This document shows positions 32,071 to 34,839 of a stretch of DNA of 64,000 nucleotides, piece after piece. Both the position numbers and the translations under genes were made by a program. Each line of letters opens with the position of its first letter. The first letter of the stretch is position 1. Location of the stretch: the NCBI RefSeq assembly GCF_003334815.1, contig NZ_QOWO01000003.1; one strand, 5' to 3'. The notes below the pieces were generated by a model, which was not told the origin of the DNA, searched no databases, and was given only the letters and a program-made list of their open reading frames with translations. Origin of the DNA: Escherichia coli. Its GTDB lineage: Bacteria; Pseudomonadota; Gammaproteobacteria; Enterobacterales; Enterobacteriaceae.

Positions 32071-32394
32071 TTACAGGCGGTGGCGATAATCGCTGGGAGT
32101 GCGATCAAACTGCCGACGGAAAACGCGGGAGAAGGTCTGCTGCGAGACATAACCCAGGTCCATTGCGATATCAAAAATCGGACGCTCGGTGGTGCGCAAC
32201 TCAACGGCGGCCAGTAACAGGCGGCGTTGGCGAATGTAATCGCCAAGCGTCTGATGCGTCACCGTGCGGAACATTCGTTGCAAGTACCACTTTGAATAGC
32301 CTGATTTTTTTGCGACTACATCAATGTTAAGCGGCTGGTCAATATGCTCGTCAATCCATGCGATAAGATCCTGAATAATTTTCTGATGGGACAT
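32071..32394 (-). CDS. soxS: Superoxide-response AraC-family activator SoxS (107 aa)
   Basis: MSHQKIIQDLIAWIDEHIDQPLNIDVVAKKSGYSKWYLQRMFRTVTHQTLGDYIRQRRLLLAAVELRTTERPIFDIAMDLGYVSQQTFSRVFRRQFDRTPSDYRHRL. Confidence 0.97.
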   Translation of the reverse strand: MSHQKIIQDLIAWIDEHIDQPLNIDVVAKKSGYSKWYLQRMFRTVTHQTLGDYIRQRRLLLAAVELRTTERPIFDIAMDLGYVSQQTFSRVFRRQFDRTPSDYRHRL

Positions 32395-32479: not shown

Positions 32480-32944
32480 ATGGAAAAGAAATTACCCCGC
32501 ATTAAAGCGCTGCTAACCCCCGGCGAAGTGGCGAAACGCAGCGGTGTGGCGGTATCGGCGCTGCATTTCTATGAAAGTAAAGGGTTGATTACCAGTATCC
32601 GTAACAGCGGCAATCAGCGGCGATATAAACGTGATGTGTTGCGATATGTTGCAATTATCAAAATTGCTCAGCGTATTGGCATTCCGCTGGCGACCATTGG
32701 TGAAGCGTTTGGCGTGTTGCCCGAAGGGCATACGTTAAGTGCGAAAGAGTGGAAACAGCTTTCGTCCCAATGGCGAGAAGAGTTGGATCGGCGCATTCAT
32801 ACCTTAGTGGCGCTGCGTGACGAACTGGACGGATGTATTGGTTGTGGCTGCCTTTCGCGCAGTGATTGCCCGTTGCGTAACCCGGGCGACCGCTTAGGAG
32901 AAGAAGGTACCGGCGCACGCTTGCTGGAAGATGAACAAAACTAA
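32480..32944 (+). CDS. soxR: Redox-sensing MerR-family regulator SoxR (154 aa)
   Basis: [70 protein letters not shown]...; C-terminal [2Fe-2S] motif [12 protein letters not shown]. Confidence 0.97.
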
Positions 32945-33080
32945 AGCGCCACAAGGGCGCTTTAGTTTGTTTTCCGGTCTTTGTCTTTCTCTCTATCCCG
33001 CTGGTACACAGGAGGGTTTCCCCCGACGTCAACACACCTCATTCGAGCACGTGGTGGAGGTTCCGGTTGGTGTTGATGCT
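32938..33080 (-). ncRNA. ryjA: Possible small RNA RyjA (recalled from literature as lying between soxR and yjcD; boundaries approximate)
   Basis: Not verifiable from sequence alone: the 545-bp soxR-ghxP gap is far larger than a simple promoter needs and the soxR terminator hairpin is also a good terminator on the minus strand. Strand and ends are from memory. Confidence 0.25.
32942..32975. terminator. Bidirectional hairpin terminator at the soxR 3' end
   Basis: taaagcgccacaagggcgcttta flanked by tttgtttt on the plus strand and ttttgtt on the minus strand. Confidence 0.55.
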
Positions 33081-33489
33081 TTAATTGTATGTCACCGACG
33101 TTTCTTCGCCAGTGTAAAAGTATACTTTTTAACCGCAATATTTTTGTCATCTCAGACGATTTTTTATCGCAATCCTGAACGGTATACGGCTCGATAACGC
33201 TGCAATCTTGCGCACCGACGATAACGTTTGCGCATCAATTGCCTGGTTTTTCATCGTCAAGACAATAAAAGAGAAAAAAGCAGCAAACTTCGGTTGAAAA
33301 AGCCGCTATGATCGCCGGATAATCGTTTGCTTTTTTTACCACCCGTTTTGTATGCGCGGAGCTAAACGTTTGCTTTTTTGCGACGCAGCAAATTGTCGCA
33401 AACCTGGAGCAGGAAGATAACGTTTCGCTGGCAGGGGATTGTCCGCCACGCATCTTGACGAAAATTAAACTCTCAGGGGATGTTTTCTT

Positions 33490-34839
33490 ATGTCTACGCC
33501 ATCAGCGCGTACCGGCGGTTCACTCGACGCCTGGTTTAAAATTTCACAACGTGGAAGCACTGTCCGTCAGGAAGTGGTTGCCGGGTTAACAACGTTTCTG
33601 GCGATGGTCTACTCGGTCATCGTCGTTCCAGGTATGTTGGGTAAAGCAGGCTTCCCGCCTGCGGCAGTTTTCGTTGCAACCTGTCTGGTTGCCGGACTCG
33701 GTTCTATCGTGATGGGTCTGTGGGCTAATCTGCCGTTGGCGATTGGTTGCGCCATCTCCCTGACAGCGTTTACCGCATTCAGCCTGGTGCTGGGGCAACA
33801 TATTAGCGTACCTGTCGCGCTGGGTGCCGTGTTCCTGATGGGTGTGCTGTTTACGGTAATTTCTGCCACGGGTATCCGTAGCTGGATTTTGCGCAACTTG
33901 CCTCACGGTGTGGCGCACGGCACGGGGATTGGTATCGGTCTGTTCCTGCTGCTCATTGCCGCTAACGGTGTCGGTCTGGTGATTAAAAACCCGCTTGATG
34001 GTCTGCCCGTTGCGCTGGGTGATTTCGCGACCTTCCCGGTGATTATGTCACTGGTAGGTCTGGCGGTGATCATCGGCCTGGAAAAACTGAAAGTCCCTGG
34101 TGGCATTCTGCTGACCATTATCGGTATCTCAATTGTCGGTTTGATCTTCGATCCTAACGTCCATTTCTCCGGCGTTTTCGCCATGCCTTCATTGAGCGAT
34201 GAAAACGGCAATTCACTGATTGGCAGCCTGGACATTATGGGCGCGCTGAATCCTGTAGTCCTGCCAAGCGTTCTGGCGCTGGTGATGACGGCAGTATTTG
34301 ATGCCACCGGAACTATCCGTGCCGTCGCCGGCCAGGCGAACCTGCTGGATAAAGATGGGCAGATCATCGACGGTGGGAAAGCACTGACCACTGACTCCAT
34401 GAGCAGCGTTTTCTCTGGCCTGGTGGGTGCGGCTCCGGCAGCGGTATACATCGAGTCTGCGGCGGGTACGGCGGCGGGCGGTAAAACCGGTTTGACGGCT
34501 ATCACCGTTGGCGTGCTGTTCCTCCTGATTCTGTTCCTCTCTCCGCTCTCTTACCTCGTTCCGGGGTATGCAACGGCTCCGGCGCTGATGTACGTTGGCC
34601 TGCTGATGCTGAGCAACGTGGCGAAAATCGACTTTGCTGATTTTGTTGATGCGATGGCGGGTCTGGTTACGGCTGTATTCATCGTGCTGACCTGTAACAT
34701 CGTAACAGGCATCATGATCGGCTTCGCGACTCTGGTGATTGGTCGTCTGGTTTCCGGCGAATGGCGCAAGTTGAACATCGGTACGGTCGTTATCGCCGTG
34801 GCGCTGGTGACCTTCTATGCGGGTGGCTGGGCTATCTAA
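33490..34839 (+). CDS. ghxP: Guanine/hypoxanthine permease GhxP (YjcD; NCS2/AzgA family, 449 aa)
   Basis: [51 protein letters not shown]...; multi-TM NCS2-type transporter. Confidence 0.92.

Follow-up and report, generated by a model that had tools for sequence, protein, structure and literature searches.

A predicted structured leader RNA shares the soxR-ghxP gap of Escherichia coli with PurR operators and the sraL gene

We analyzed a 64,000-nucleotide stretch of Escherichia coli DNA (the window; contig NZ_QOWO01000003.1 of assembly GCF_003334815.1), and within it the 545-bp gap that separates the stop codon of soxR, ending at position 32944, from the ATG of the purine permease gene ghxP (yjcD) at position 33490. 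Around the gap the window matches E. coli K-12, and its coordinates equal those of NC_000913.3 minus 4,244,989. Our results indicate that the gap is a composite of two known elements, the small RNA (sRNA) gene sraL (ryjA) and a PurR-repressed ghxP control region, and of a third that is apparently undescribed, a structured RNA in the ghxP leader. A first-pass annotation had given the size of the gap correctly and had related it to three PurR-box-like elements; the length is instead accounted for by the 141-nt sRNA gene and its promoter, a junction of ~60 bp, and a conserved promoter and leader region of ~280 bp that controls ghxP. We consider it probable that the gap combines the sraL gene, two PurR operators (O1 and O3), a conserved promoter and a genuine fold of the plus-strand RNA, with the third box and a nearby palindrome as helices. 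The observations made in the first-pass annotation are mostly correct and mostly already known; its reading of the third box and of the palindrome at the DNA level only is wrong.

The ghxP leader RNA

The three boxes that share an AACGTTT core are found exactly as annotated: acgataacgtttgcgcat (box 1, 33218-33235), gctaaacgtttgc (box 2, 33361-33373) and gataacgtttcgc (box 3, 33416-33428). The window contains 21 copies of the heptamer AACGTTT (11.4 ± 3.9 expected); four of them, both strands being counted, fall within 33223-33425. The palindrome is also real, although it had been placed one base off: ttgcgac lies at 33378-33384 and gtcgcaa at 33395-33401, with a spacer of 10 rather than 9 nucleotides, and the maximal arms reach 8 nt (TTTGCGAC and GTCGCAAA, at 33377-33384 and 33395-33402). 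Box 2, box 3 and the palindrome are predicted to be strands of a single RNA structure, a three-way junction conserved in 80 species of Enterobacteriaceae, with the following parts.

33350..33455, plus strand: predicted structured leader of ghxP, a three-way junction of ~105 nt within a leader of ~160 nt
33350-33356 with 33449-33455, plus strand: helix P1, the outer helix
33360-33362 and 33364-33370 with 33419-33425 and 33427-33429, plus strand: helix P2, box 2 paired with box 3
33377-33385 with 33394-33402, plus strand: helix P3, the annotated palindrome, an apical hairpin capping the P2 arm
33434-33437 with 33443-33446, plus strand: helix P4, a short hairpin
33474..33492, plus strand: ribosome-binding region of ghxP, with a nearly invariant Shine-Dalgarno (SD) sequence CAGGGGAT followed by the ATG at 33490

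The comparison set consisted of 80 ghxP loci, one per Enterobacteriaceae species, with GhxP proteins 91-99% identical; The set was later extended by Salmonella, two Erwinia loci and ESL0689, an enterobacterium with a reduced genome. As the neutral baseline we took 279 four-fold sites of ghxP, where identity to E. coli is 0.53. RNAalifold, applied to a structure-naive MAFFT alignment running from the −10 hexamer to the start codon, paired box 2 with box 3, and folding the leaders of E. coli, Enterobacter and Kosakonia independently gave the same architecture, in which P2 and P3 form a coaxial arm of ~20 bp. Over 16 nt, boxes 2 and 3 are 81% complementary. The column pair 33362:33427 illustrates how this complementarity is kept: in the RNAalifold alignment it is C-G 17 times, U-A 17 times, U-G five times and never C-A.

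A covariance model built from 13 sequences detected one copy of the element per locus in all 81 loci (80 species and the MG1655 copy, L001), with scores of 19-142 bits, and in Salmonella with 106.8 bits. In the model-fitted alignment of the 77 distinct sequences, 93.2% of the cells were paired, as opposed to 32-45% when the 3′ partners were slid by one to three columns, and 15 of the 30 pairs had changed on both sides (178 cells). Here 33362:33427 was C-G in 30 sequences, U-A in 29 and U-G in 16, leaving two of the 77 unpaired. Among 500 shuffles, none matched the model-fitted alignment on four of five measures and a single one did on the fifth. The structure-naive alignment gave a similar picture, with 89.3% of the cells paired (34-48% in the slid controls) and 80 doubly changed cells, where shuffles had 25; none of 500 shuffles reached the observed percentage paired, number of doubly changed cells or covariation score, whereas the counts of pairs and of pair types were weaker (18/500 and 35/500, respectively). 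Compensatory changes were concentrated in P1 (four of seven pairs) and in P3, where eight of nine pairs covary and the arms take forms as different as GCGAC/GTCGC, GCGAT/ATCGC, GTGGC/GCCAC, ATGAC/GTCAT and GTGACG/CGTCGC, where one pair is U-G. The annotated palindrome is hence a covarying RNA hairpin and not a separate DNA element. Several unpaired stretches are at least 90% conserved, namely CGG at 33357-33359 (J1/2), GGCA at 33430-33433 (J2/4) and an internal-loop block AGCACARGGA.

None of the 4227 Rfam families, including the purine riboswitch RF00167, matched the leader in E. coli or in nine other species, whether the E. coli sequence was searched at E≤1, six species at gathering scores or four at E≤5, and our literature search found no published description of it. 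No further copy of the element was found near ghxQ, xanQ, uacT, adeP or adeQ, or elsewhere in the window. Across loci the leader measures 166-291 nt. Insertions of 45-110 nt are present in some genera (L059:2296-2345; L046, L048, L050, L038, L077 and L079), either before the element or between the element and the SD, and the one in Klebsiella folds into a stable additional hairpin close to the 5′ end. A 22-codon upstream open reading frame, from an ATG at 33352 to a TAA at 33420 (MRGAKRLLFCDAANCRKPGAGR*), was rejected as a candidate: its start is not conserved (GTAAGCG in Enterobacter and others), its frame is broken by indels, and in Klebsiella it becomes a 112-residue out-of-frame reading frame. 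Translation into a conserved peptide is thus improbable.

PurR operators and the ghxP promoter

By chromatin immunoprecipitation on microarrays (ChIP-chip), PurR was found on a region named ryjA/yjcD, at 4,275,855-4,276,485 of U00096.2 (window 32843-33473), with a log2 enrichment of 2.08 in the presence of adenine and none in its absence, and with the motif ACGATAACGTTTGCGC at 4,276,230-4,276,245, that is, window 33218-33233 or box 1 (PMC3159470, Cho et al. 2011). ghxP also belongs to the PurR-1 iModulon, for which box 1 is the sole site listed (motif site at 4278206; PMC6892915), and adenine- and PurR-dependent repression of ghxP has been reported (PMC6892915, PMC8376909, PMC3809563). Occupancy of the region by PurR and repression of ghxP by PurR, as the first-pass annotation had proposed, are therefore known from the literature; the roles ascribed below to individual operators are putative.

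The PUR box is a 16-bp imperfect palindrome (matrix ACGNAAACGTTTGCNT). We built a position weight matrix (PWM) from the 27 other ChIP-chip motifs of Cho et al., leaving ghxP out, and scanned both strands of the window (127,970 positions). Validated sites at purC, purE and adeP (yieG) scored 18.9-19.5 bits when each was left out in turn; 25 of the 27 ChIP-supported motifs scored 12.7-24.9 bits, and the weakest two 9.45 and 7.75 bits. The operators and the promoter of ghxP are as follows.

33218..33233, plus strand: PurR operator O1 (box 1), ACGATAACGTTTGCGC; 18.55 bits, rank 2; identical to the published ChIP-chip and iModulon motif
33294..33323, plus strand: predicted sigma-70 promoter of ghxP, −35 TTGAAA (33294-33299), 18-bp spacer, −10 GATAAT (33318-33323); 10 of 12 matches
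33317..33332, plus strand: weak PUR-like box O2, GGATAATCGTTTGCTT; 10.1 bits, rank 9; overlaps the −10 hexamer and the predicted start
33360..33375, plus strand: PurR operator O3 (box 2), AGCTAAACGTTTGCTT; 19.06 bits, rank 1; also the 5′ strand of helix P2
33414..33429, plus strand: box 3, AAGATAACGTTTCGCT; 3′ strand of helix P2; 2.8 bits on the plus strand, 7.0 bits on the minus strand, rank 33

Boxes 2 and 1 are thus the two best matches of the whole window and score like validated operators, and for them the annotation as PurR boxes stands. O1 is present in all 80 loci, with at least 18.4 bits in 73; O3 scores 15.8-20.6 bits in 79 of the 80 species and 11.6 bits in the remaining one, and is also present in Erwinia. 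Both are retained in Salmonella. O3 lies within the ChIP-chip peak, yet it is not listed as a motif in PMC3159470 or PMC6892915. Box 3 is not a credible PurR operator, as it falls below every ChIP-supported motif; it reaches 9 bits in a few Citrobacter only, and is conserved as a sequence but not as a PWM match. The third-best PWM match of the window is AGGCCCACGTTTGCCT, at 10845-10860 on the minus strand (14.5 bits).

The relation between box 2 and box 3 follows from the form of the operator itself. Because the PUR-box core AAACGTTT equals its reverse complement, any RNA partner of box 2 must repeat AACGTTT; box 3 is that partner, hence the appearance of a third box with a poor operator score. 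The 7-bp core of P2 (P2b) never covaries, unlike P1 and P3, while box 2 maintains an operator-grade score across species together with a conserved 3′ flank, TGCTT. From these observations, box 2 appears to be under two constraints at once, as a DNA operator and as a strand of an RNA helix.

A reading purely at the DNA level, as in the first-pass annotation, would make each of the three boxes a PurR operator and would assign the palindrome to a second dimeric transcription factor. This interpretation draws on the core common to the three boxes, on a ChIP-chip peak that spans all of them, on the rank of box 3, which is above background at 33 of 127,970, and on the palindrome arms of E. coli, which are perfect over 8 nt. 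We nevertheless regard it as highly improbable. Box 3, at 7.0 bits, lies under even the two weakest ChIP-supported motifs, and the GC of the right half-site is missing from it. The arms of the palindrome vary from species to species and stay complementary, which a protein that reads specific bases would not tolerate, and P1 joins segments ~100 nt apart and covaries as well. In addition, the alignment contains 196 G:U cells and 40 A:C cells; this excess is expected of a plus-strand RNA and not of symmetry in duplex DNA, and the structure is therefore that of the plus-strand transcript.

A single conserved sigma-70 promoter would serve ghxP, with a predicted start at ~33329-33331. Both hexamers are kept in at least 97% of the loci compared, in the two Erwinia loci and in ESL0689, and the spacer sequence is variable. 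Relative to this start, O1 would be centered at about −104, O2 would lie over −10/+1 and O3 would extend from about +31 to +46. O2 was absent from the first-pass annotation. Its score is marginal; it is nonetheless found at 10.3-13.4 bits in 79 of the 80 species, and CGTTTGC directly downstream of the −10 hexamer is invariant, so that PurR may bind there. The distance from O1 to O2 is exactly 99 bp in all 79 loci where O2 was scored, and the 125-bp stretch from O1 to the −10 hexamer has not a single indel in the 84 loci with a −10 motif, including two Erwinia loci without O1, while many columns of that stretch are saturated with substitutions. A second promoter near box 1 was rejected, for no −10-like hexamer is conserved there. 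UTP-sensitive (uridine triphosphate-sensitive) reiterative transcription at GCTTTTTTT, after the −10 hexamer, was also rejected as a conserved mechanism, the T run being GCCTTAATTT in many genera.

PurR bound to hypoxanthine or guanine would occupy these sites and lower ghxP transcription. O2 would act by promoter occlusion, aided by O1 at its fixed 99 bp, and O3 would act as a downstream roadblock. As a secondary possibility, PurR dimers on O1 and O2 may cooperate through a DNA loop, a behavior undescribed for PurR. Operators within transcribed regions are reportedly known for this repressor of the LacI/GalR family, as a roadblock at purB (He and Zalkin, 1992) and as two downstream operators at purR (Rolfes and Zalkin, 1990). 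ghxP resembles the known PurR targets in these respects, in being occupied with adenine only and in co-varying with the pur regulon. It differs from them in having three boxes, at about −104, −5 and +38, in the invariant 99 bp between a strong distal box and a weak promoter-proximal one, and in one operator that also supplies a strand to a conserved RNA helix.

ESL0689 and Erwinia suggest that the region behaves as two modules, O1 with O2 and the promoter on the one hand, O3 with the leader on the other. In ESL0689, box 2 and the RNA element are both lost, whereas box 1 and the −10 box are retained at 99 bp. In Erwinia, box 1 is absent, and the promoter, box 2 and pairings resembling P1 and P2 are retained; the covariance model scored 19 bits in one of these loci and found no match in the other, and a P1-like helix is seen in a single-sequence fold.

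Two further blocks are conserved. In the one at 33195-33214, immediately before box 1, most genera have (A/T)TGTTGCAAnATTGCGCA and E. coli has CGCTGCAATCTTGCGCA; this block is similar to GCAA-N2-TTGC, an octamer arrangement like that of CytR, and TTGCGCA recurs 20 bp downstream inside box 1. The other, A-rich and at 33275-33301 (AAAAAGC(G/A)GCAAA(G/C)TTC(A/G)GTTGAAAA), abuts the −35 hexamer and could be an UP element or a site for another factor; it contains GCAAAC, which is like the left half of a PUR box, but no central CG.

The sraL gene and the layout of the gap

The remaining features of the gap and its surroundings are listed here.

32071-32394, minus strand: soxS
32480-32944, plus strand: soxR, stop codon at 32942-32944
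32937..33077, minus strand: sraL/ryjA sRNA gene (Rfam RF01408), annotated as ryjA, b4459, in NC_000913.3 (MG1655)
32938..32968, both strands: hairpin common to soxR (plus) and sraL (minus), with perfect 13-nt arms and a 5-nt loop; the soxR stop codon lies inside
33084..33089, minus strand: candidate sraL −10 hexamer TACAAT, read from the sequence, 7 nt upstream of the sRNA 5′ end at 33077
33144..33207: Escherichia-specific junction
33490-34839, plus strand: ghxP (yjcD), followed by yjcE

The sRNA that the first-pass annotation named as RyjA is indeed encoded in the gap, and was already known. The Rfam model RF01408 matches over its whole length (positions 1-142 of 142) with 153.3 bits, against a gathering score of 39, and an E value of 2e-36. 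The locus is the annotated gene itself, in the same place beside soxR and with its terminator hairpin shared with that gene, and we saw no difference from SraL/RyjA as described. Orthologues occupy the same position in Salmonella, Klebsiella, Enterobacter, Citrobacter, Kosakonia and Trabulsiella. SraL/RyjA depends on RpoS, accumulates in stationary phase and represses tig (PMC3753932). The hexamer TACAAT at 33089-33084 would be its −10 element and fits the RpoS-type promoter of that report; sequence homology between E. coli and Salmonella past sraL reaches 33143.

That one hairpin would terminate both soxR and the sRNA, as proposed, is probable. On the minus strand the hairpin passed our terminator scan with 13 pairs, and its stem is taken in by the Rfam sraL model. 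The plus-strand tract after the complete 13-bp stem, GTTTTCCG, has four T in eight positions, just short of the scan threshold; after a shorter GC stem the tract would be TTTAGTTTGTTTT.

Of 5426 complete E. coli genomes, 5420 contain the 545-bp gap at ≥80% coverage; three of these ~5420 matches are to records labelled as plasmids. Homology between E. coli and other genera is restricted to two blocks, 32937-33143 (sraL and its promoter) and ~33201-33488, and is broken between ~33143 and ~33201-33208. At this point most Enterobacteriaceae carry a gene for a glutathione S-transferase (GST)-like protein of ~220-230 residues with GST_N Pfam matches (for example at L059:1420-2112 and L084:986-1654), which is why soxR and ghxP lie ~1.1-1.4 kb apart in most genera. 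The gap is short, and the GST-like gene absent, in Escherichia, some Citrobacter, Trabulsiella, some Kosakonia and Kluyvera. No remnant of the GST gene was found in the E. coli gap.

Possible roles of the leader

The leader holds several elements that could bear on translation initiation. The SD octamer CAGGGGAT occurs as an exact direct repeat, at 33432-33439 in the 5′ strand of P4 and at 33474-33481 in the SD region; most other species carry CAGTGGAT in P4. The P4 copy could be an SD mimic or an anti-anti-SD. The loop of P3 (33385-33394) is GCAGCAAAUU in E. coli K-12 and pyrimidine-rich, CCCCU(U/A)U, in most other species; among 74 distinct sequences, CCCC is found in 44 and CCC in 56. The CCCC type, found in E. 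albertii, E. whittamii and most other genera, is complementary to AGGGG of the nearly invariant SD. E. coli has CAGCAAAU in place of this version: 4442 of 5421 E. coli genomes match the K-12 loop version with ≥99% identity over 100 nt, and the CCCC version never gave a 100% match.

On this basis, the fold may set or switch ghxP translation initiation or mRNA stability after transcription, by competition between C-rich elements (the P3 loop and the 3′ strand of P4) and G-rich ones (the SD copy in the 5′ strand of P4 and the SD itself). Such an arrangement recalls the SD/anti-SD/anti-anti-SD switches of other enterobacterial leaders, given that a copy of the SD octamer CAGGGGAU is paired in P4 and that C-rich segments could pair with the SD. 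It differs in that the ghxP SD is invariant, so that this pairing is not testable by covariation, in that the predicted partners vary, and in that the E. coli loop is not C-rich. We propose this specific post-transcriptional mechanism only tentatively.

Other roles can be imagined for the same fold. It could be a riboswitch, that is, an aptamer for a metabolite of the purine pathway (guanine, hypoxanthine, xanthine, phosphoribosyl pyrophosphate, a nucleotide or an alarmone), the ligand of which would alter ghxP translation or Rho-dependent termination and add feedback at the RNA level to PurR. Covarying stems with near-invariant junction and internal-loop nucleotides are the usual signature of riboswitches, the element lies in the 5′ leader of a purine permease gene, and the SD octamer copy in P4 and a P3 loop complementary to the SD in most species could form a switch. 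Moreover, the Bacillus subtilis homologue pbuG is under the control of a guanine riboswitch. The ghxP leader resembles that family (RF00167; B. subtilis pbuG and xpt) in being a three-way junction upstream of a permease of the same family, with covarying stems and conserved junctions. It differs in having no match in sequence or structure, a larger size (~105 nt), one long interrupted arm and no terminator, and in coexisting with a protein repressor that has an operator within the element; ligand binding is hypothetical. That no Rfam family matches, that neither an obvious terminator nor an SD-sequestering helix lies beside P1 and the distance to the SD is variable, that one gene only is preceded by the element, that its distribution is narrow and already degraded in Erwinia, and that hypoxanthine and guanine are already sensed by PurR all make a riboswitch unlikely, and the same applies to a riboswitch-like sensor in which the same nucleotides would serve as PurR operator in DNA and as a strand of the aptamer helix in RNA. 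If true, a purine permease would be under a protein repressor and a metabolite- or factor-sensing RNA, both within the same sequence. We know of no purine riboswitch in enterobacteria.

The leader could otherwise be a docking site for a trans-acting regulator of translation, either CsrA, through the CARGGA loop and the SD CAGGGGAU, or an sRNA. Two conserved GGA motifs lie ~65 nt apart, in ACA(A/G)GGA of the internal loop and in the SD, and resemble the CsrA consensus obtained by systematic evolution of ligands by exponential enrichment (SELEX). ghxP expression is altered in a csrA mutant (PMC5694010, Supplementary Data 6). However, the same data contain no peak at ghxP in crosslinking and immunoprecipitation sequencing, where ghxP may be poorly expressed, and many transporters of the PurR regulon (codB, tsx, xanP, adeP) change in the same direction, which suggests an indirect effect (PMC5694010). 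We found no publication linking yjcD/ghxP with CsrA, and complementarity between SraL and the neighboring ghxP leader was no better than in shuffles. We consider a docking site quite unlikely. Finally, the fold could be constitutive and receive no regulatory input, as an mRNA stabilizer, an RNase III substrate, a damper of membrane-protein translation or a neutralizer of the self-complementary operator RNA. RNase III could plausibly act on the coaxial P2-P3 arm, neither an expression platform nor a ligand is evident, and E. coli has tolerated the loss of the C-rich loop. Unpaired junction nucleotides that are near-invariant in 80 species, when neutral sites retain an identity of 0.53, rather suggest specific tertiary or intermolecular contacts, and we find a purely constitutive role somewhat doubtful.

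Several observations weigh against our interpretation of the region as a whole. Single-sequence folding energies are no better than those of shuffled sequences (z of 0.07, −0.82 and −0.89), so that the support for the RNA is covariation and not thermodynamics; the sampled species are fairly close, and some of the covarying cells are inherited and not independent events. The Erwinia leaders keep just P1-like and P2-like pairing. As to function, E. coli itself has lost the C-rich P3 loop, the predicted partners and accessibility of the SD are inconsistent between species, and the distance from P1 to the SD varies, with insertions of ~60 nt in some species and no evident expression platform; our terminator scan found no terminator after the element. 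As to PurR, the ChIP-chip peak of 630 bp cannot separate O1, O2 and O3, and box 1 is the only site in the published lists. PurR is dimeric and is not known to form tetramers, which leaves cooperation between O1 and O2 with no established mechanism. Positions relative to +1 rest on the predicted promoter, as no experimental start or 3′ end of the ghxP transcript was found in Cappable-seq data or in the supplements of Kim 2012, Adams 2021 and Conway 2014.

With these points in mind, the composite architecture has several implications for the control of purine salvage. A second strong operator in box 2 and a fixed O1-O2 spacing refine the published view of a single PurR site at ghxP. An unannotated fold supported by covariation precedes a well-studied gene of E. 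coli K-12, and what appeared to be a third operator and a palindrome, both candidate protein sites on DNA, are helices of that RNA. One sequence would be under two constraints, as a repressor operator and as a strand of an RNA helix, and it is because these coincide that the palindromic operator core reappears 55 nt downstream. For post-transcriptional control of purine salvage in enterobacteria, the ghxP leader offers a candidate that can be tested directly.

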